Below are positions 3,551 to 42,803 of a stretch of DNA of 42,995 nt, piece after piece. This DNA is from a virus (lineage: Duplodnaviria > Heunggongvirae > Uroviricota > Caudoviricetes), in IMG/VR virus record IMGVR_UViG_3300029705_000072. One strand, written 5' to 3'. How positions within the stretch are numbered: the first letter of the stretch is position 1; each line of letters opens with the position of its first letter. Below the pieces are notes generated by a model. It did no database searches. It was given only the letters and a program-made list of their open reading frames with translations, and was not told where the DNA came from. A program made the translations under genes and the position numbers.

Positions 3551-3784
3551 TTAGCCAGAAAAGCCGTTCTTCAGCATTCCCCATGTGAAAGGAGTGGTCT
3601 TTAGGCTCTCCGTATCTTCCTCAAGAGCATCAATGGCATCGCGATCCTCTTTTATAGCCGCGTCAATTTTCATCATGTTTGATGTCGACTGGTCACCGGC
3701 GAGTTCGGTTCTAAAGTCGATGAAGCGCTTGCTGGATTCTGATTCTGGAGTGAGTGTAAGACCAAGATTTGGAGATGTACTCAT
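3551..3784 (-). CDS. Small tail-region protein
   Basis: 77 aa, SD GGAGG; T.NLGL...NM.KID.A motif common at N-termini of phage fibre-associated proteins. Confidence 0.65.
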   Translation of the reverse strand: MSTSPNLGLTLTPESESSKRFIDFRTELAGDQSTSNMMKIDAAIKEDRDAIDALEEDTESLKTTPFTWGMLKNGFSG

Positions 3785-3794
3785 AATTGGCCTC

Positions 3795-4550
3795 CTATAA
3801 GGTTATATAATCGATTTCTGATAACGACACTGAATCCCAGGATGATAGTGATAGGTATCCGCCAGACCCCTGGTCTACTTCGGATAGTCTTCTGTATCTA
3901 ACCATGGATTCTATTGCGCTTGTATTCAGAGTGAGTGTGTTATTGCCAGCACCGGTAGTTTTGGATGTCGCCGTATTAACGCTACTGTCGAGCTTAATGA
4001 TTACAGACTCTGATAAGCTCTTTGTAGACATCCCACCTATAGTTGATGCATTCAACTCCAGTACGGCGTGTACTGGCTGGTAGACCGTCTTGCTGGCTTC
4101 TACCGATGACTGAATGACCGAAATGGTGTTGGTGCACGCTGCGTACAACGTTCTCAACGCTGACACCGTGCTTTCAAGCAGTTCGGACTCAGATGGTGCG
4201 AGCTGTGTATATTTGACCAACGAAACAGTTTCGATAACAGCGTCTAAACTTATGTCGTTAATCAAGTTCTTTACAGAAACAAGTTCGCTTACGGTACCAA
4301 GCGTGGTCGTTATTTCGAATGAGGTGTTTTCTGGCTGAATATATTTCCGAAGTGCAGCCAGGGCTTGGCTTGCATTCAGGAATATCGTCATCGATCCGGA
4401 GATGTCGGTTCGTCTTGTCAGGTATCTGATAATCAAATCGATTTCCTCAATCTTCTTATCGATAACAACCAGTAGCTCTTTAGTTTTATATCCAACTTGA
4501 ATGGAGTACTTGTGGTTGTTTTTACCTACAGTGACATCGTACTTCTGCAA
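3795..4550 (-). CDS. Hypothetical structural protein (Ser/Thr-rich)
   Basis: 251-aa ORF, TTG start with GGAGGTG, tail operon. Confidence 0.65.
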   Translation of the reverse strand: MQKYDVTVGKNNHKYSIQVGYKTKELLVVIDKKIEEIDLIIRYLTRRTDISGSMTIFLNASQALAALRKYIQPENTSFEITTTLGTVSELVSVKNLINDISLDAVIETVSLVKYTQLAPSESELLESTVSALRTLYAACTNTISVIQSSVEASKTVYQPVHAVLELNASTIGGMSTKSLSESVIIKLDSSVNTATSKTTGAGNNTLTLNTSAIESMVRYRRLSEVDQGSGGYLSLSSWDSVSLSEIDYITL

Positions 4551-4574
4551 CTTAGAACACCTCCGTTCTATTTA

Positions 4575-4982
4575 TTAAGAAGCAGCAGGGGGTTCTAAAG
4601 AAACTTTTAGTTGGTTGGCTTTGATTGTGATGACGGTATTAGGCTCTACCTTTCTGCTGATAGACAGATTGTTGTAGAACAAAAGGTTTCCGCCAGTAGC
4701 TGCGTCGAAAACAGCATAGTGTGTCATAGTACCCCAGTCGGTCTTGCTTTCGGGGAATGAAACTGCTGCTGAGTTTGTAATGACGCCGTTAGTGGGTTCG
4801 GATAAGTTGCTAAGTTGGACTCTTGCATATCCGGTCCCGATAGTTGATGGTTCGGTGCATGCGCCAGCCACGGTTGGAGTCGTACTGGAAAGACCGATAT
4901 AGTATGCGGTTGGAAGGGCAGGAGATGTCTTTGTTTTAAAAAGATTGCCCATTACCACATTCTGAAAATAAGTAGTATTCAA
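4575..4982 (-). CDS. Phage tail/baseplate protein (Gp80-like beta-sandwich)
   Basis: YIGLSSTTP...GYARV...SFP...WGTMTHYAVFDAATGGNLLFY motif typical of this family. Confidence 0.7.
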   Translation of the reverse strand: MNTTYFQNVVMGNLFKTKTSPALPTAYYIGLSSTTPTVAGACTEPSTIGTGYARVQLSNLSEPTNGVITNSAAVSFPESKTDWGTMTHYAVFDAATGGNLLFYNNLSISRKVEPNTVITIKANQLKVSLEPPAAS

Positions 4983-4995
4983 ATGTCTTCACCTC

Positions 4996-5367
4996 TTACT
5001 GTATGAATGCCTGATCAATGTTCCGCCGAATGTCGATTATGCCCTGACCGGGAATTTCGAACTCCTTGAACGTGTCGAGGATAGAAATTTGATATACATA
5101 TCGACCGTGCAGTCCAACGGTATTCTCTGACTTGATCTTCACGGACGCAACGCAAATAACACCGTCTTCGTTTTTTTCTAGCGTAGCTGGGATGACGAAT
5201 ATAGGTGAACCGTTTTTGTCGGCATAATTGACCACGGAGAACCGTACGGTACAACCGTTTGCATCAAACTCACCTCCAGAAGGAAGGACGAGATTGAAAT
5301 TGATGCTCTGTGTTTCTCCGCCGATGAACGAAAGCTCAGGTAAGTTGTAGATCGGATTACAAATCAT
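4996..5367 (-). CDS. Baseplate upper-type protein
   Basis: Start moved to ATG 5367 (SD GGAGGG); LHGRYVYQISI...QGIIDI resembles BppU-type fold; downstream of Dit. Confidence 0.55.
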   Translation of the reverse strand: MICNPIYNLPELSFIGGETQSINFNLVLPSGGEFDANGCTVRFSVVNYADKNGSPIFVIPATLEKNEDGVICVASVKIKSENTVGLHGRYVYQISILDTFKEFEIPGQGIIDIRRNIDQAFIQ

Positions 5368-30646: not shown

Positions 30647-31000
30647 CTAGATCACCGCATCTTCTTCGTCATCGATGATTCCTGCAACTTCTGCGTCGTA
30701 TTTATTCAGATCGCCTTCAAACATCTTTACTTCTCTCTTCATCTGAGTGAAGGGGTAGAAGCGGGGGACATAGTGGGGTGGAATCTGAATAGGCTCACCG
30801 GTAATGGGGTGGGGGCAGCTTCTTGCAGCCCTTTCGACGATTTCAAAACTACCGAAGCCGGAGAGATGTACGGCGTTTCCTTTGCGCAGATTCTCCAGAA
30901 TAATGGTTGTGAAGTCATCAATCAGTTCAATGGCACTTTTCTTGGTGTACCCAAAGCGTTCGCGCATCTGATCAACTAAAATGTCTTTTGTAACTTTCAT
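30647..31000 (-). CDS. hup: HU family DNA-binding protein (YonN-like)
   Basis: V.LSGFGSFEIVERAAR..HPITGE.IQIP...PRF.P; extra acidic tail. Confidence 0.9.
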   Translation of the reverse strand: MKVTKDILVDQMRERFGYTKKSAIELIDDFTTIILENLRKGNAVHLSGFGSFEIVERAARSCPHPITGEPIQIPPHYVPRFYPFTQMKREVKMFEGDLNKYDAEVAGIIDDEEDAVI

Positions 31001-31023: not shown

Positions 31024-32052
31024 CTATAGGTCTGATAGACCTTTCTTTTCCGGAGTACTAATGTCTCCGTCCTTAAAATACATGCTGATTTGCTCGTCAG
31101 CGTCGATATCTGTATACACCTTGACCATATCAACGCTATCCCAGGCTACTATCTGTGCGATTACGCTATCTGGGATTCCTGCGCGAACAAGGTTTGATGT
31201 ATAAAAATGTCTGAGACTGTGTGCGTAAAAGTCTCTGCCTGTCATTCGGCTAAAGGTCTCTGCCCAACTATTGAAGGTGGAGATAGGAACTTGCTCAGAA
31301 GGGGAGTCCTTCTTAAAGAACAACCACTCGCTTTCAATACCTAGTTCTTTTCGTTGTTCCATCCATCTATCAAAATAAGGCTTAAATCTTTTGGCAAGCG
31401 TATAGCACGGCACGAACTTACCGCCACCGCGCCCCTTTGTCTGAATGGGATCGCTCTTATACAAAGCTCCGTCGCACACAAGCTTATCTTCACCAAAGTC
31501 AGACACTCTGAATCTGGATAGTTCAGATTTTCTTCTGCCGCTATACATAGCAAGTGCTACGTAGCACGCCTTCTCATGCTCACCACGTTCGGCAAGTTTG
31601 TTCAGAAGTTCGTTTAGCTCGTCTTCCTCCCAAACGGTCTTTTCTCTTACAGCGCGTAGCGCAGGATTCTCTATCTTTCTTACGATAGATCTGAACCCCT
31701 CGAACTCTGGTTCGGAATCCAGAATATTTTCGATGTAGTTAGAGAGGCTTGATATTGCAGACTTAATGCGTCTGATTCTGGCCGGTGAGTTTTCGTTTTC
31801 GTTCACGAGCCATGTTTGGAAAGAAACGAGATCTCTTTTGGTTACCTTCGCAAAATCCTTGTTGCCTAACTTTTAGAGGCAGAAAACAAAGAAAATATCA
31901 AGGTCATTAGAGTAGCCGACAATTGTTCCTTGGCTACGCTGAAGTGATTTTAAGTAGTCAAGAAAGTCGTTTTTCAGCCGTACATTCTCCGGGTTGATTT
32001 GTGCAATAAGCTCCGGAGATGTCAGTGTGTTCATCTTAGTTTTTCTTGGCAC
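31024..32052 (-). pseudogene. Tyrosine recombinase (342 codons) with in-frame TAA at codon 60 (31873-31875)
   Basis: SD GAAAGGA + GTG 32052; same frame continues past TAA (FCL*KLGNK); catalytic GRRKSE, HSLRH, VKVY intact; real mutation vs sequence error unresolved. Confidence 0.75.
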
Positions 32053-32073: not shown

Positions 32074-32148
32074 TGGTGAGGATAGCGGGGATCGAACCCG
32101 CGCCGCCGCCGTGAAAGAGCGGTGTCTTAGCCACTTGACTATATCCTC
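32074..32148 (-). tRNA. trnE: tRNA-Glu (UUC), 75 nt, CCA encoded
   Basis: Acceptor GAGGATA/TATCCTC; D GTC/GAC; anticodon arm CCGCT-CTTTCAC-GGCGG; T arm GCGGG-TTCGATC-CCCGC. Confidence 0.95.
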
Positions 32149-33551: not shown

Positions 33552-34322
33552 TTAGTTTTTTAAAAGTTCACGATGTCGCATAACCGAGTTGATTCTCTGC
33601 TTTGTTCCGACTTCGACGGCGCAAGCCGGGCAGTACTTCTGGTGTCTACCCTTTGATTGATCACGTCTCTTCAATGTTATACCGCAGTTCTCACACTCAA
33701 AATACTCACCAAGTCCGTAATACTTGTGGTACTGGTGACCCAGGTTTCGGAAGTCGCTTATATGTAATTCGGTTTCATCGTCGCCCATGAAGAGCACCTG
33801 CACATTAAGGTTGTCAATCTTCTTGGAGAACTTTATGAAACCCAGTTCTCTCAGCTCGTTAAACATGAGCCCCTGACGCTTGATTGACGTGTTGATGTTT
33901 GCCATCTGCATGATTTCGTTATCCGGAGTGTTTACCCAGTGGTTGTTTTTCTCGGACGCAGCGTCCCAATACTTCGCCACACACAGCAGCGTAAACGCAA
34001 GCCTGCGGAGCTGAATGCCATCCAACATGCTTATCTTTTCCAGTTCACTCTTGGTAATGTTCACTCCGTCCAACTGAATGCACGGGTACTTTATTGAATT
34101 CTTTGCAATACGGTCTAGCGTATCGGACCAATGCACTAGTGATGCATTCGGATCGCATTGAAGTAGGAAGGAATCCAAAAGGCTTCTAACTTCTTTCTTG
34201 CTGTACTGATTCTCGTAGTAGTATTTAGCAACACGATTAAGTGTCTCTGTTGGTTTGCGACCAAGGTCGCGATTGTCTATCATGGCTTCCGCCCATTCAT
34301 ATTCGTTAAGAACTATACTCAT
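33552..34322 (-). CDS. Hypothetical protein with winged-helix-like segment and C-terminal Zn finger
   Basis: CENC...YCPAC; TAATG-coupled to RNAP stop. Confidence 0.75.
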   Translation of the reverse strand: MSIVLNEYEWAEAMIDNRDLGRKPTETLNRVAKYYYENQYSKKEVRSLLDSFLLQCDPNASLVHWSDTLDRIAKNSIKYPCIQLDGVNITKSELEKISMLDGIQLRRLAFTLLCVAKYWDAASEKNNHWVNTPDNEIMQMANINTSIKRQGLMFNELRELGFIKFSKKIDNLNVQVLFMGDDETELHISDFRNLGHQYHKYYGLGEYFECENCGITLKRRDQSKGRHQKYCPACAVEVGTKQRINSVMRHRELLKN

Positions 34323-35425
34323 TAAATCTCTCCCATTTTTACCGTCTTTAGACTAAATCTTTCGCCACCAAAGTAAATGTCTCCGTCTGGATCCATGGTG
34401 GGGAAGGTTATCTCGTTGTTATTTCTATCAAGCAGCGCTTCGATGATTTCATCTCCACAAATCTCCCAGGCAAAACGCTTTGTGCCGTTGCGTCCGTAGC
34501 AGAGATCAAGAATTATGTTACAAAGAGCATATCTATTGGTGCAAATTTTGTTACACTCCTGTATGAACTCGTTTCGCATATCCACTAACTTCTGATAGGA
34601 TTCGTCGGCTTCCAAGCGTTCGTAATTGGCGAACACCGCATAGCTTCTAAGTCTCTTACTATACCCCTCGTACAAACGCATTATGGCGCTGTACTGACTC
34701 TTGCTATATTCGGCGTCGTTCTTCATGATTGTGTAATCGAACTCAACAGATGCATTTCTGCGTCCAAGATATCTATCGAACTCTCTTTCAAACCGTCGGC
34801 ATATGCGGTTCATAACACAATTGTTTGTGCTTACCGGCATACTGCTGTTGTAATACCGTATAAACTCGCGCTGTCTTTCGGTTAAATTCTCTGGCGGAAT
34901 CGCCATCAGCTCTTCCACGTTCATCTGGAATTCTCTGATTGCGTTCTTGTTCGTGTTCTTTATGTATGTGTTGTACTGCTTCATGAGAGCAGGGTATATG
35001 ATTCGCATAAAGTACGGCTTCTTATCCGCAACAATCTTTTGATAGAAATGTCGTTTCTCTGGATCTTCGATTTTGTTTGCTGCATGACGGTCGTGCCATT
35101 CCTTTGGCATGGGCTGTGCTATAATGCCTTTTGCCTTGTCGATCGCGTTCTGCTGAAAAAGCTGACCGCATTTAATTCTGTAATCCAGCTCGTTATACTC
35201 AGGGCTTCCTTTTTCGTACTGTGCTTGCACGTCGAACATGGAAGTGATCCAATTTGTTGTCTTGCCGATATCGTCACCGAAACTTGCCATATTCGAGGAG
35301 ATCAAATGGTCTTCGGTTACGATTACTTTCTTTGCTTTGCGCTGAACGCACATGATTGCGGGTAGTTCTTTTAGATTTCTCACCAAAACATCATTGTCGG
35401 TGAGCATAACTAGATCCCCGTCTTT
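34322..35425 (-). CDS. yonO: YonO-like single-chain RNA polymerase, exon 2
   Basis: Starts AAA GAC GGG GAT (KDGD) right after intron terminal G; 367 aa to stop. Confidence 0.88.
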   Translation of the reverse strand, partial: KDGDLVMLTDNDVLVRNLKELPAIMCVQRKAKKVIVTEDHLISSNMASFGDDIGKTTNWITSMFDVQAQYEKGSPEYNELDYRIKCGQLFQQNAIDKAKGIIAQPMPKEWHDRHAANKIEDPEKRHFYQKIVADKKPYFMRIIYPALMKQYNTYIKNTNKNAIREFQMNVEELMAIPPENLTERQREFIRYYNSSMPVSTNNCVMNRICRRFEREFDRYLGRRNASVEFDYTIMKNDAEYSKSQYSAIMRLYEGYSKRLRSYAVFANYERLEADESYQKLVDMRNEFIQECNKICTNRYALCNIILDLCYGRNGTKRFAWEICGDEIIEALLDRNNNEITFPTMDPDGDIYFGGERFSLKTVKMGEI

Positions 35426-36443
35426 CCTTAATACCACATGTCACCATGTGGAGTAGACTATCTCATAACGTCACTATGTGACGTCCTGGGCGCTTCCCGC
35501 CCTGGAATCTCACCAGGACAGTACCCGGTTCATCGGCGTGCCATTCGGTTTAGCCTGTATCCGGTAGTCGTTACACCTTACCACTAGTTTCCCAGCGGTC
35601 TTGGCACGGTATTGTCTGTATTATGTCTATTCAAAACGAAATCTGTATCCAAGATACATTGTGTTGTTTTTAGCGGCTCTTGAAATATGAGCAGATACAT
35701 TATATGGGTGCCTAGACATAGTTGCCCCAGAAGAAATAAGGTGCTCTGCACACTCTTTTATGTACCCGAAACTTATTTCGGTACCGTCGCTAGTTATCAT
35801 TGTAACTGGAGTAGATCGTCCGTTCTTGATTCCTGGCCTTGATTGCTTCTGAATGGACAGTTCGCGGTTCTCTGCGTACTTTTTATGTAGAACGCTATTG
35901 CCGTAATTTGGATTATTCTTGCCAGCCATCGGCCTTGTTTGTGTTACATGTCTTTGATGTGACATTGTATGGTGGATATTTTCAATGCGCGTTGTCCACT
36001 CTAGATTACTCGGCGTATTGTTTAGTCTATTGAAATCTATGTGATTGACTTCTGCGCCGCAAAAATATCCGTCGAGGTAAGTAAGCGCAACGAGCCTATG
36101 AACAAAAAATTCCTTGCGATGGCCATTTTTTGAAAGGCGAACTTTTGCATATCCGTCGTCATTGATTACTTGCTTAATAATACGACCTTTTCTTACGGCA
36201 CTCTGTCCGTCCGATCTTGTTACGAGTCGATCAACGCCAGATACTACTCCAGTGTCGCTTATCTGATACCACCCCTCGTATCCGGGTATATCTTTCCAGA
36301 CCATACCAACACCTCCTTTCTATAATAGTTGAATAGATTGTTGTTTACAGATTTTTACCGTTAGCGGCCTCGCGGCCACACCCTGCATGTGCAAGTTCAC
36401 CCAGTTTTCACTACGCCATCACTGGCGTAGGCGACAAATGTTT
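35426..36443 (-). mobile_element. Group I intron (1018 nt) with homing endonuclease, in RNAP active-site codons
   Basis: P1 CGAU|AA with UUGUCG; P3 CUGGGUG/CGCCCAG; P4 ACGGU/ACCGU flanking the ORF; P7 GACUA/UAGUC; P9 CCACAUG-GUGA-CAUGUGG; terminal G 35426. Confidence 0.92.
35627..36304 (-). CDS. Intron-encoded NUMOD4-HNH homing endonuclease
   Basis: WKDIPGYEGWYQIS (NUMOD4); VHRLVA...VNHIDFNRLNN..NLEWTT..EN (HNH); NUMOD1-like C-terminus; SD AAGGAGGTG. Confidence 0.92.
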   Translation of the reverse strand: MVWKDIPGYEGWYQISDTGVVSGVDRLVTRSDGQSAVRKGRIIKQVINDDGYAKVRLSKNGHRKEFFVHRLVALTYLDGYFCGAEVNHIDFNRLNNTPSNLEWTTRIENIHHTMSHQRHVTQTRPMAGKNNPNYGNSVLHKKYAENRELSIQKQSRPGIKNGRSTPVTMITSDGTEISFGYIKECAEHLISSGATMSRHPYNVSAHISRAAKNNTMYLGYRFRFE

Positions 36444-38069
36444 ATCGGCTCCATTCAGCGCGTGGGCGGCAGTATCCCACGAATTCATAATCGTACACGT
36501 ATTCATGTACTGATACCACTTGCTTGCCTCGTCGCTTCTGTGCGGACGAACAAGCCTAATATTATTGTGGCAGGTCATTGGAGCACGGTAGCACGCGAGC
36601 TTCTCCGCGTTACCCGAGCACCAGTATTCGTTGTAGATTTCTCCCGCCTTCAAAAGTCCGGTAACCTCTAGCCCGAAAATGCTCTGGCAAAGAGAGTAGG
36701 GGTCTCCGGATATGATCGAATAGTTGCCGTGGACTTTAAGTACCCCCACCTTAGCTTCGTCTATTCGATTGCGGATCATATGGAATATCTTTTCCTGTAC
36801 GAAAGAGTCGTTCATCATCTCCGGCTCTATCATGATCGCCTTGATGAAGTCGTTCTGCAGACGGTCTATATTATCCTCGGTCATCCCGAACCCGCGAAGG
36901 AATAGGGCGGTCTTGTTGATGTCCGCGTAGAGCACATCCTTGATTTCGTCCATGGTGGGAGCAATAAGCTCTTCGATATCGTCATCGGTAAGGTCGTAAC
37001 TCTGAATGAACTGGTAGTTTAGAGCACGTTCTTTTTCAAGTTCCTTCGGGCAGGTCTTGGCGACGCCGAACGAATAACCGTTCTCGTGGCAGTTTCTCAG
37101 GTAATCGTCGCAGCTCTCGTAACTATCCCATAACTTCAACATGGAAGTGGTTAGAATCATTTCAACATTTCTAATGTCTACCTCGTTGCCCCAGGCGTCT
37201 CGCACAATATACTCTCCGGCAACCTCTTCGGCAAAGCGGTGGAAGTCAAAGGTGAACACCATTCCTTTTTCCCATGAATTTCTGGTGTTCGCTCCGGCGA
37301 TCATGTAGTCCAGATTAAGTTCACGGCTCCAACGTTCGGCTAGGGCAGGGGCGATAAGTCCATATCCGTCTGATTCATCCAATTCGATATCGTAGTCCTT
37401 CATCTCCTTCATGATTGGTTCGTATGTGCCTTCGTCGTTCAGATAAATAACGTCTGATTTAAATGAGGTCTCACAGTCGTTCACCACCAGAATCCCGTTG
37501 GGATCTGATACCGGTATGGACGCGCTGCAGGTAAGTGCCTTATACGCTTCGAGCTTGGCTGGTACCAGTTCTTTGGAAAGGTCTCTTCCGTTATCTATCC
37601 GCCGTCTGATTTCATCTATATGTCGCTCGCTCACAAACACTATCGTTCTGGTCTTTACACCGCCGTTAGTGCCGAGCAGCCTCTTGTACTTGATGCCGTT
37701 TACGAAGAAACCCAGACACGCTCTCGCGTAGTCCTTATCCTTGTCCATGATTACGCACATATAATCCGGCTTGAACTGCAGTTCATCCAGCTTGGTATAC
37801 AGCGCCTTGACCTGCTTGCGGTTCTTTGGGCTATTGGGTTCCTTACGCAGTCTTTTGATTTCGGACTTGATTTCCCTGGCGGCTTCATCCGCGTCGGTAA
37901 TTCCGTTCAGCTCGTCTAACCATCTTAAAACCTGGCTGTCGGCGAGAGATATAACCTCGTCGTTCTTTCTGGCCTCCGCGATAGGGAGGGTAAGTCTCCA
38001 CTTGGCTTTGCGTAGCCGGCTGCTGTGGAGTTTGAATATATACTTTTGGCACGCTAGTTGTTTAGCCAG
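36444..38069 (-). CDS. yonO: YonO-like single-chain RNA polymerase, exon 1
   Basis: Double-psi-barrel motifs SDGYGLI, R...KG, YRAP; ends NGAD; start placed at CTG 38069 (SD GAGGTG); alternative GTG 38168. Confidence 0.85.
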
Positions 38070-38118: not shown

Positions 38119-38310
38119 TTACTGGTAGATTCCTTCTTGGTATTGGAACCATTCTCTGTAAAATTCACGTCTTTGTGTTTCTATGTAATCGTCCTCGTCG
38201 AATTCTTCGCTCAGCGGACTGAGATATTTACACTCTTCTGCGACCCGGCATAGGTATTCTTCGGGGCAGTCGTAGCATTTACGGCCTCTTGGCTTAATTG
38301 ATTTTCTCAT
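38119..38310 (-). CDS. Small Cys-rich protein (63 aa)
   Basis: SD AAGGAGG, TAATG-coupled to helicase; CYDC...C...C. Confidence 0.75.
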   Translation of the reverse strand: MRKSIKPRGRKCYDCPEEYLCRVAEECKYLSPLSEEFDEDDYIETQRREFYREWFQYQEGIYQ

Positions 38311-39521
38311 TACTCGTTTGTTCCTCCTTGTTTCATTTCTTCGATCCAGTTCAGCAGCAGGGTTCTCATGCGCTTACTGGGTATGTAGATGTTAATTGGT
38401 TTCTCGTCTCGAATGGCACTTCGCCAGATCCACTGGAGCATTTCGCCCAGGGCGAACTTATCCGGATCTATCTTAATTCCTCTGGCTCCAAAGAACTTGG
38501 TGAGGTTTGGGTCTGCGAACCGATTAGCCATATAGGCAAGATCTCTTTTGTCCCGAAATTCATTAGTTGCGCGACTGGCGATTTGTAAAAAGTTTTGCCG
38601 GTATCTTCCGCTTTCATAAAGAAGCTTGTCACGGTGGTCGATGAAGCACGTCCACATTCTGGAGTTGGAAGTAGATTCAGTAAGACGGTGGAAGTAGTTA
38701 TCGAGATTGCTTCGCAACTTTTTAATATCCGAATGATTCTTACCGCGTCTTAAGTACCATGCCTTTGAAAGAGCTGTTCGACTGTCACCAATTGAATTCA
38801 TGTTCTTGCTATCGAGAATATTGATCAGCTTGCTGTAGTCGATCGGTGGCGGGCAATCTGGTTTGTCCGAGAACTTATATCCCTTTTCGTCCGTTTCAAT
38901 TCCAACGATACGGTAGTCGAATCCGAAGTACTCAAGGTACCCCTTTTGGTACTGACCGTCAAAGAGGTAAGTTAGCATAAACACATCCTCAAACGATCTT
39001 ATGATCGCCGGATTGAGTACTTGCAGCAGAGCGCTATCTCTTATATAAAGGCTACCAGTCATGGCAATATCACGATAGGTCGCCAGAGCACCAAAGAACT
39101 CTGGGTCGTCCCAGGTTACGCGTCCTTCTTCGTCAAGTGTGGCAAACTCATTCTGTACGACTTCCACCTCTCTCTTACAAGCCTGGATCTTTCGGATGGC
39201 GCTAATAGACTCATCCAGTATTAATGTGTAGTTCTTCTTGCGGATAAGTTCGACCGCTTCTTCGTCAATCAGATTAAACAGTGAATGTGACGCAGCGATG
39301 TTTTGTCCGTACCGCAGGTAGAACTTTAGTTTGGATGACTTGCTGTAACTTTCGTCATCCGGCTGGTCGAAGTCGCAGTATTCGCAGATGCGATCCACCT
39401 CGGTGAGAAAGGGGGTAATGTAGAGAAACCGTTTCTCGCTCTTATGCTCATTCATGTACCGTATGGCCGCAGAGGACTTGCCGCGTCCCATGCGAGCATC
39501 TACTACGGTGATTTGATTCAT
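38310..39521 (-). CDS. SF2 (DEAD-like) helicase / P-loop NTPase
   Basis: Start moved to ATG 39521 (SD AAGGAGG); DARMGRGKS, LILDES, QWIWRSAIR. Confidence 0.75.
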   Translation of the reverse strand: MNQITVVDARMGRGKSSAAIRYMNEHKSEKRFLYITPFLTEVDRICEYCDFDQPDDESYSKSSKLKFYLRYGQNIAASHSLFNLIDEEAVELIRKKNYTLILDESISAIRKIQACKREVEVVQNEFATLDEEGRVTWDDPEFFGALATYRDIAMTGSLYIRDSALLQVLNPAIIRSFEDVFMLTYLFDGQYQKGYLEYFGFDYRIVGIETDEKGYKFSDKPDCPPPIDYSKLINILDSKNMNSIGDSRTALSKAWYLRRGKNHSDIKKLRSNLDNYFHRLTESTSNSRMWTCFIDHRDKLLYESGRYRQNFLQIASRATNEFRDKRDLAYMANRFADPNLTKFFGARGIKIDPDKFALGEMLQWIWRSAIRDEKPINIYIPSKRMRTLLLNWIEEMKQGGTNE

Positions 39522-39566
39522 ATATTTAATTCCTCCTTTCAAATGGAAACTAATGGTAAATTTAAG

Positions 39567-39835
39567 GTGGCATAATATGAAAAGTGGGTATTTTAGCCAC
39601 CAAAAATGGTTGAAAAGTGGGTTTTCGTAAAAATGCCACAAAATTTTTGCACGCTAAGGAGTCCAGTCTGTAACCTACAACATTTTCAGTCTTGCTATGA
39701 ACAGACTGTCTTACGAAAAAGAGGAAGAAGATTAAAGAAAAATATCTTGTTCTCTTTTATATAATAGAATTTCAAGCTGTGGCATTGAAATTTCAACGTT
39801 TCCCGGTGGGGTATGCCACAAAAGTACTGTGGCAT
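39567..39835. repeat. Cluster of ATGCCACA motifs (4 perfect, 1 partial) plus tgaaaagtgggt x2
   Basis: 39633-40, 39778-85(rc), 39813-20, 39828-35(rc), partial 39567-73; tgaaaagtgggt at 39578-89 and 39611-22. Confidence 0.85.
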
Positions 39836-39914: not shown

Positions 39915-40742
39915 TTACTGCGCTACAACTGCTTCAGCCTCATATAAATTACTATCTAACAAGTAGTTACAAGTTGTACTACCAAGATTCAGTTTACGGT
40001 ACGCTTCATCAATTTCTTCACTGGTGATACCAATATAGTCAAGGGTTTGACCGGAAGATGAATGACCAAATATCTTTTGCAGCAACAGAAGCTTTCGAGG
40101 ATCGTTACCACTCATTACCATCTGGTGATAACCGAAGGTTTTACGAAGAGTATGAGTAGATACTTTAGCACCGATACCTAACTCTTCGGCAATGCCTTTC
40201 AAGATACGATCGATAGAGTTACGATGAATCGGTTCGTTACCGGTGGCGTTAACACTTTCGGAACGGAACAGGTAATCATCAAGTCTCACACCAGGAGTAT
40301 TCTCCAGGTAAAGAGTAACTGCTTCGACTACAGCATTATTTATAGTAATGTAACGATTACGCTTTGTCTTTCTGGTGTTACTTGTTTTTTTCTCCAAAAT
40401 GGGGAAGGACTGCCGAAAGGCAAAATGTTCATTGATCAGCTGGGAGAAGCGAAGTGTTCTAAGGTCACTTACACGAAGACCGAAGTTGATTCCTACAATG
40501 AACAGCATATTGTCACGGTATCTCTTGTTGTCGATCAGGTATTTGGAGATGCGTAAAATATCTTCCATACTCTTGATCGGTTCAGCTTTGTGCTCAGTTA
40601 CTACATCGATATGAACTTCCGAAGCAGCAGGAGCTATGATACCGGATCTCAGTTTTCTGTTGTTTTCTTTTAGACTGGAGATGTCGATGGCGCCAGAAGC
40701 GGCTGTACGATTACTGAAGTCTACACGAATGACGTTTGTCAT
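39915..40742 (-). CDS. Tyrosine recombinase (catalytic-domain type)
   Basis: GINFGLRVSDL, EKKT, HTLRKTFGYH, FGHSS...TLDYIG; SD GGAGGTG. Confidence 0.92.
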   Translation of the reverse strand: MTNVIRVDFSNRTAASGAIDISSLKENNRKLRSGIIAPAASEVHIDVVTEHKAEPIKSMEDILRISKYLIDNKRYRDNMLFIVGINFGLRVSDLRTLRFSQLINEHFAFRQSFPILEKKTSNTRKTKRNRYITINNAVVEAVTLYLENTPGVRLDDYLFRSESVNATGNEPIHRNSIDRILKGIAEELGIGAKVSTHTLRKTFGYHQMVMSGNDPRKLLLLQKIFGHSSSGQTLDYIGITSEEIDEAYRKLNLGSTTCNYLLDSNLYEAEAVVAQ

Positions 40743-41423: not shown

Positions 41424-42803
41424 ATGAACAACAACAGAGTAACACAGAACACTACCACCGTCAACCGCTTTGAAGAGGCAAAGGCCGCCTTTGAAAAGGC
41501 TTACAGCCGCTTTGTAAAGGATGGCACGGATTGCACGGCCGAATTGATGACACTTGCCGAAGCCGTGGCCCGTTCCGTTGTAAACAAGTGTATCGACCCA
41601 CAGCGCAAGACCGCCGCACAGCGCGACACCATCAGCAACAACGGACACAGCCCGGCTCTGGTGGCCATCCGCCGCGACATCCGCAATGACCTCGCCGCGC
41701 TCGAAACCGTGGCAAGACTTGCCGAAGAAGAGGCCGAAGCCGTAGCCGCAGACTCCGCCGCCGCCGCTGTACATAGAGGAGCCAAGAAAGCCCTTGCCAA
41801 GGCAAAGGAAGAAGCCGAAGCCGCCGCCAAAGCCGCCATTGATGGCAAGACGGACAAGGGCAAGACCGCCGCCCTAAAGCGCGCCAAAGCCGCCGAAGCC
41901 CTTGCCGCTAAGCGTGCCGCCGCCGCACACGCCGAAGCCGTACGCAAGACCGAAGCCATGACCAAGGCCATGCGAGAACGGCTTGGGGATGGTATCGACC
42001 TTGTAAACGAAGCCGCCGCCGCCCTGTGGGAATTGGCCGCGGAACACGCGGGCCGCAGAGGATGGCTCGACCGCGATTATCTTGTACGCGTACTTTCTCG
42101 CCGCGTGTTCGTCAGCATGGACACACAGCCCGAATGGAAAGAGCGCGAAACCTGTGCCATGACCGAAGCAACTCGCGCCGTTCGCAGACTCGTAAGCAAC
42201 ACCGCCGCCGTGCATACCGACCCGAAAAATTCCTACTCTTATATCGAAGACCTTGCCGACGATGAAGAGGGAAACGGGCTTGAAGTCATTTACAGAAGAC
42301 TCGGCAAATTCTCCGACCTTGGCGGCACGGATTCCAACGGGAATTATACCGCCGACGAAGCAAGCGCGCGTCTTGTCGATTCCGTTGTTGCTTCCATCGG
42401 TATGACCGCCACCGAAGCCCGCGCTTTGGCTCTCCGCCTTGCCGGGTGTGGCGTAGAAGAAACCGCCCGCCGCATGGGAGTTAATTCGCGAACTACCCGT
42501 TTCCATCTGCAGAACATCGGCCGCAAACTGGTAGCATGGGCAAAGGCCGGAGAAACCGCCGAAGCCGAAACTATCATTTCCGCACTCGAATCCGCACACC
42601 TTGACGAACTTGACACCGCCGAAGCGCAGGGCAAGGCTCGCCCCGTTGTTCAGTACACCATGGATGGGAAAGAAGTAGCCGCGTACGGCTCTGCCGCCGC
42701 CGCCGCTTTTGATACTGGAATCAACAAAGGCAGTATTTCCGCCGCCGCAAGCGGCAAGCGCGAAAGCGCGGGCGGCTTCCGTTGGAAGTACATGGAATTT
42801 TAG
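41424..42803 (+). CDS. Sigma-factor-like HTH protein with Ala/Lys/Glu-rich insert and C-terminal NUMOD1 domain
   Basis: SD GAAAGGA; TEARALALRLAGCGVEETARRMGVNSRTTRFHL (region-4/LuxR-type HTH); RPVVQYTMDG...ISAAASGKRESAGGFRWKY (NUMOD1). Confidence 0.65.
   Translation: MNNNRVTQNTTTVNRFEEAKAAFEKAYSRFVKDGTDCTAELMTLAEAVARSVVNKCIDPQRKTAAQRDTISNNGHSPALVAIRRDIRNDLAALETVARLAEEEAEAVAADSAAAAVHRGAKKALAKAKEEAEAAAKAAIDGKTDKGKTAALKRAKAAEALAAKRAAAAHAEAVRKTEAMTKAMRERLGDGIDLVNEAAAALWELAAEHAGRRGWLDRDYLVRVLSRRVFVSMDTQPEWKERETCAMTEATRAVRRLVSNTAAVHTDPKNSYSYIEDLADDEEGNGLEVIYRRLGKFSDLGGTDSNGNYTADEASARLVDSVVASIGMTATEARALALRLAGCGVEETARRMGVNSRTTRFHLQNIGRKLVAWAKAGETAEAETIISALESAHLDELDTAEAQGKARPVVQYTMDGKEVAAYGSAAAAAFDTGINKGSISAAASGKRESAGGFRWKYMEF

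Follow-up and report, generated by a model that had tools for sequence, protein, structure and literature searches.

A probable mobile group I intron carrying an HNH endonuclease gene interrupts the catalytic motif of a YonO-type RNA polymerase gene in a tailed phage

An RNA polymerase gene that is broken inside its own active site raises the question of how, or whether, the virus obtains a working enzyme from it. We addressed this question in a window of 42,995 nucleotides (nt), the whole stretch analysed from the IMG/VR virus record IMGVR_UViG_3300029705_000072 (Caudoviricetes). Here two open reading frames (ORFs) related to the YonO polymerase of phage SPbeta flank an ORF for an HNH endonuclease, and the break falls within the catalytic DxDGD motif. 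The interruption is very probably a mobile (homing) group I intron in the YonO-type gene of this phage. Its boundaries, structure, restored reading frame, nuclease family and patchy distribution are established directly.

Exon 1 ends with AAT GGA GCC GAT and exon 2 begins with AAA GAC GGG GAT (coordinates in Table 1), each of these 12-mers being found once on the minus strand. Joining the exons gives an open frame of 909 codons containing NGADKDGD, which places the splice site between the first catalytic Asp and the rest of the motif, as a sequence-only reading of this DNA had proposed. The joined product aligns without gaps to intact homologues of 911-917 amino acids (aa), with 74-75% identity over ~900 aa, and the nearest of them carries NGMDKDGD. 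Neither exon contains a stop codon, and each shares ~70-78% identity with intact homologues; a TAG within helix P2 closes the unspliced frame 10 codons past the start of the intron. In a relative, a contig from bovine-gut DNA (single, of low depth) skips exactly 1018 nt between the exons, and this join independently places the boundaries to within 3 nt. The three-ORF layout of the window is repeated in several other assemblies, and the intron is therefore no assembly artefact. Alternative 3' splice sites were considered and rejected: the terminal G falls in the same place in relatives that differ in their first exon-2 codon (AAA, TTT or TAT). Of the related introns, 17 were examined; each has a final G and leaves an open frame when removed, and in 16 of the 17 the U at position -1 is paired to G in the minimum-energy fold. 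A scan of viral contigs for the junction pattern returned 53 matches, one of them a true intron and the others chance.

The intron belongs to subgroup IA (IA2-like), because P7.1 and P7.2 are present between P7 and P3; its P5 is short and without P5abc. Helices P1, P2, P3, P3.1, P4, P5, P6a, P7, P7.1, P7.2, P8 and P9 were placed by hand, and their pairing was tested on 11 related introns (49-70% identical), with partners slid by 1-3 columns as the control. In these introns 677 of 777 cells are paired, and two-sided changes are seen at 53 of 72 pairs, compared with 272-327 paired cells and 25-30 such pairs in the slid controls; the structure was defined on the window's own intron, which favours it over these controls. 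That bias does not account for the way in which P3 and P4 pair in full over a 730-nt loop: P3 (77/77 cells), P4 (55/55) and P7 (55/55) are completely paired, with compensatory changes in each. The fold of the ORF-less core has a z value of -6.3. The helices P1, P3, P4, P7 and P9 and the terminal G, which the sequence-only reading had called legible, were all located, with covariation in the 11 introns. Rfam RF00028, whose model is split by the 730-nt loop, matches the 3' half only, at 25.4 bits (E 5e-4) and below the gathering score of 50, and standard annotation therefore overlooks the intron. RF00028 is known to miss phage introns (PMC11878797). A blastn search of the 3' half against GenBank phages found nothing.

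The host gene encodes a single-chain RNA polymerase. Exon 1 is ~30% identical to SPbeta YonO over exon-1 residues 120-519 (E 2e-28), 40% identical to its counterparts in Enterocloster phages and 46% identical to CST179 of Clostridium phage c-st. An intact close homologue matches the Pfam family RdRP (PF05183), and the joined product holds the YonO/RdRP two-barrel core homology and an intact DxDGD in one chain; no solved structure matching an intact homologue by sequence was found. At the x position K is the usual residue within the clade, 46 of the 107 intronless loci having NGMDKDGD; some YonO-type genes, in L169 and a few intronless loci, have DxDSD or DxDAD as their motif. The start codon of exon 1 is uncertain: the CTG at which we begin it follows a GAGGTG box, and there is a GTG in the same frame 9 nt upstream of this CTG. 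The virus is a tailed phage whose terminase, portal and tail genes follow the polymerase on the same strand, and its close relatives are mostly on contigs binned with gut Clostridia. The record has 57 kb and is ~48% complete, with no second polymerase copy in the assembled part. SPbeta YonO transcribes late genes and its Asp triad is essential (PMC5467207). From this role, from the early stop in the unspliced frame and from the single polymerase assembled, it is sound to infer that late transcription in this phage needs splicing, as the sequence-only reading had expected.

The endonuclease ORF lies wholly inside the P5 loop (L5), thus looped out beyond P4 as first described, and its ribosome-binding site is strong. 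A literature search for ORFs in L5 found nothing. The protein aligns to I-HmuI (PDB 1U3E) over residues 1-124 (E 1e-19), the C-terminal 100 residues having no significant alignment, and H88, N96 and N109 correspond to I-HmuI H75, N83 and N96 and are conserved in relatives with 37-52% identity. By analogy, the predicted HNH nuclease most likely makes site-specific nicks near the insertion site. It has NUMOD4 and HNH_3 domains. The earlier identification of an HNH-carrying group I intron, of its boundaries and of the YonO-type gene is correct.

A search for RNA data sets containing this DNA returned none, which speaks neither for nor against splicing. We infer the splicing and the cutting of this element from sequence, along the following lines. 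The pre-mRNA would fold into the IA-type ribozyme and splice after GAU and after the terminal G, rebuilding D-K-D-G-D; the unspliced message would yield no more than a shortened protein that has a single catalytic Asp. The HNH protein would be translated from its own ribosome-binding site in L5 and, as with I-HmuI-type enzymes, most likely cuts one strand of alleles that lack the intron, close to the motif, after which recombination repair would copy the intron across. The conserved motif would present a target common to many phages, and imprecise loss from it would be lethal. The element would then pass through a cycle in which the intron is gained, its nuclease gene is lost and the intron itself disappears.

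The distribution among relatives was surveyed at 110 related loci spanning the motif and in the 120 best protein clusters, following another suggestion of the sequence-only reading. An intron is present at the window's site in three loci (~3%), with the ORF in L045 (not counted as intronless, its alignment being overlapping) and without it in L102 and L112, and the occupied loci are scattered on the tree; the other 107 are intronless. Five of the 120 clusters end at the motif, the window's own among them, and the other four have an intron in the DNA. About half of the introns at this site are without an ORF, and ORF-less introns of 298-344 nt were found in L102, L112, L190 and L191. Near relatives occur in three states, with intron and ORF, with intron alone and without intron (single low-depth contigs), and in one run the near-identical 5' part of the intron is directly joined to P5'-P4'-P6 with no ORF (again a single low-depth contig). 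These states are what a homing cycle would predict. The codon for the first Asp is GAT in all site-matched intron alleles, as is needed for the U.G pair, and GAC in 63 of the 107 intronless alleles.

Insertion at this motif recurs in distant YonO-type genes. Full-length relatives of the HNH protein from two scans (35-42% identity) all lie in group I introns in a YonO-type DxDGD motif. Shorter matches are mostly outside such introns, and one of them (L181:2400-3400) lies in a group I intron of another phage gene in a capsid-like neighbourhood; partial HNH matches are therefore not tied to YonO. Four insertion positions were found: after the first Asp (L169), 5 nt upstream in a QFDNDGD-type gene (L170), 1 nt downstream in a gene whose first Asp is GAC (L199), and after the second Asp (L196). 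In most of these introns the HNH ORF occupies L5, and in L170, L183 and L220 it follows P5 and falls in the P6 region (read by eye). A single lineage of the nuclease may thus have entered different resident introns on more than one occasion, in the way that the collaborative-homing model of mobile intron origin envisages (PMC3984707).

The c-st gene is another case. Like the gene in the window it is of the YonO type, is broken in the same motif and has the same type of P1, whereas its intron lies two codons downstream, has no ORF and differs in core sequence. The C-terminal part of this polymerase is CST178, not CST177 (tblastn), and Rfam found nothing at the intron even at E 1. Introns also gather at a second place in the gene, QQN-x-I-D-x-A-K, ~95 codons downstream of the motif, in L088, L105, L112 and the Bacillus phages Goe11 and Goe14, and ~11 of the 120 protein clusters end there (judged from protein ends alone). 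L112 has two introns. In Goe11 and Goe14 the annotated yonO_1 and yonO_2 are the two exons of one gene, with a joined product of 835 aa.

Plain homing accounts for all the data. In its favour, the nine intron-bearing alleles need 8 changes on an exon-1 tree of 104 rows, not fewer than with shuffled labels (mean 8.8). Against it, this is a quick tree in which 41 of 101 inner branches are weakly supported, and scatter alone cannot tell repeated gain from repeated loss. Also against it, Asn87 stands at the position of I-HmuI Asp74, a metal ligand in that enzyme; Asn is found in all ten aligned family members, and on this alignment it is therefore not recent decay.

It is possible, though we hold it only tentatively, that the nuclease also serves as an interference weapon, nicking the polymerase gene of phages without the intron, whether co-infecting or resident, whose sequence has diverged too far to be repaired from the intron-bearing copy, and thereby blocking their late transcription. 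The precedent invoked by the sequence-only reading is the PhiPA3 gp210 intron, for which nicking and interference with PhiKZ have been demonstrated (Birkholz et al. 2024, PMC11620839). Like the window's intron, it is of group I, carries an HNH gene related to I-HmuI and lies at conserved Asp codons in a two-barrel RNA polymerase of a phage. Its position, however, is behind a DD pair in the beta-subunit gene of a virion polymerase that has several subunits, not in DxDGD, which makes it an analogy and not the same site. Most sampled intronless relatives are 66-70% identical in DNA, with a median longest exact run of 14 nt near the site, while conservation at codon positions one and two of the motif is 96-100%, which makes these relatives plausible targets and poor repair partners; one HNH lineage also tracks the motif across very distant polymerases. 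However, the rarity of intron alleles and the loss of the ORF from about half of them fit a selfish cycle, not a strongly beneficial weapon. Close intronless relatives (at least 85% alike) exist and give ordinary homing its substrates, and the window's allele differs from the sampled intronless ones at 5-16 of 27 positions around the site. A broader version, which we also think unlikely, would have this HNH lineage specialised for the DNA of the DxDGD loop, joined to different resident introns at four positions of the motif and in two loops, and, with most targets too divergent for repair, used widely against competitors among the phages and prophages of gut and soil Bacillota. SPbeta itself would be an unlikely target, because its host (Bacillus) and the DNA upstream of the site (QFDNDGD context) differ; clostridial phages of the NGxDxDGD clade are likely ones.

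That the intron splices while its nuclease is dead or out of targets, the element being merely inherited, is unlikely: the Asn at the Asp74 position and the commonness of ORF-less versions would fit, but the ORF is full length, its ribosome-binding site is strong, and no residue that is conserved among nine relatives has changed in it. We consider it very improbable that the intron is a regulatory gate, in which splicing efficiency would tie the timing of late transcription to GTP or Mg levels. An active polymerase does require splicing, and a second group I intron lies in the probable capsid gene; yet ~97% of the sampled homologues have no intron, its presence is scattered, the sequence has no sign of a sensor, and a promoter and terminator scan gave signals no higher than chance (shuffles). 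A split gene with separately translated halves, or a pseudogene, can hardly be right, although gene callers give separate ORFs and GenBank has the c-st gene in pieces, since the break is inside the catalytic loop, the only start before KDGD in exon 2 is a GTG within the intron, the ribozyme is intact and covarying, and the exons are stop-free and close to intact homologues.

In SPO1 the intron ORF lies in L8. The mobile intron described here resembles the DNA polymerase introns of SPO1 and SP82 (I-HmuI and I-HmuII; PMC2988022) in its IA-type phage ribozyme, its NUMOD4-HNH nicking-type nuclease and its place in an essential polymerase gene of a Bacillota phage, whereas its host gene is an RNA polymerase, its ORF is in L5, Asn replaces Asp74 and the C-terminal 100 residues are unaligned. 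SPbeta YonO is likewise a single-chain two-barrel polymerase with the Asp triad, but has QFDNDGD where the window has the NGxDKDGD context, and its description (Forrest et al. 2017, PMC5467207) makes no mention of an intron. AR9 and MarsHill-like jumbo phages also have RNA polymerase genes that host introns (10.1101/2020.12.14.422802; PMC12350094); these enzymes, unlike that of the window, are multi-subunit, and we found no statement of an insertion inside DxDGD. In zeta crAss-like phages, frameshifts and stops inside DxDxD have been recorded and left unexplained (PMC7886860).

The preference of homing elements for conserved active-site codons, to which the sequence-only reading appealed, is well known for phage introns. 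Their presence at critical codons of essential genes (PMC2988022) and in RNA polymerase genes of phages (PMC11620839; 10.1101/2020.12.14.422802) is already established. The recurrent YonO motif site is apparently unpublished; in agreement with that reading, we found no paper on introns in YonO-type genes, in a search that was thin on subscription journals. The failure of Rfam to detect these introns has left public YonO-type genes (c-st, Goe11, Goe14 and many gut phages) annotated in fragments, and the polymerase therefore looks broken. Several independent introns within 12 nt of one motif, with one nuclease lineage in different loops, form a natural test set for collaborative homing (PMC3984707), and they permit a test of the generality of PhiPA3-type interference. 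No new principle is involved unless interference is demonstrated.

Table 1. Locations of the intron, its parts, its host gene, related introns and neighbouring features (positions in the window unless a locus is named)
Feature	Location	Strand	Remarks
Exon 1, YonO-type single-chain RNA polymerase	36444..38069	minus	542 codons; last codon is the first Asp of DxDGD
Group I intron, IA-type	35426..36443	minus	1018 nt; P7.1/P7.2 and P3.1 present; terminal G at 35426
P1 helix	36432..36447	minus	U.G pair at 5' splice site; 36444 U is the last exon base
P2	36411..36430	minus	contains in-frame TAG 36413-36411
5' strands of P3, P4, P5 and P3.1 hairpin	36347..36404	minus	comparative pairing
225-aa NUMOD4 + HNH_3 endonuclease gene (predicted)	35627..36304	minus	in loop L5; own AAGGAGGT ribosome-binding site at 36318-36311
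Ribozyme 3' half (P5', P4', P6a, P7, P7.1, P7.2, P3', P8, P7', P9)	35434..35619	minus	Rfam and comparative pairing
Exon 2 of YonO-type polymerase	34322..35425	minus	367 codons; begins KDGD
c-st intron, group I-like, unannotated	L001:7672-7988 (AP008983)		317 nt, ORF-less; between CST179 and CST178; after second Asp of DxDGD
Group I introns at QQN-x-IDKAK motif	L088:3615-4785; L105:6911-7224; L112 ~3640-4745		
yonO intron of Bacillus phages Goe14 (L231) and Goe11 (L232), unannotated group I	~3980-5270		1290 nt; 300-aa GIY-YIG-type ORF in L5
Second group I intron	22942 to ~22555	minus	ORF-less; Rfam 88 bits; near 3' end of probable major capsid gene (ORF 23808-22915)
tRNA-Glu(TTC)	32074-32148	minus	between metallophosphoesterase-like ORF and tyrosine recombinase
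Tyrosine-recombinase genes (two)	39915-40742 and 31024-31806	minus	flank polymerase module
YonV-like gene	38310-39641		near polymerase
HU gene	30647-31000		near polymerase
459-aa Ala-rich ORF	41424-42803	plus	divergent from the rest

Elsewhere in the window, removal of the second intron from the probable capsid gene gives an open frame of ~336 aa, its 3' splice site being approximate. The YonV-like and HU genes stand near the polymerase as in SPbeta-like phages, and the Ala-rich ORF has weak matches to sigma-70 region 4/GerE and NUMOD1.

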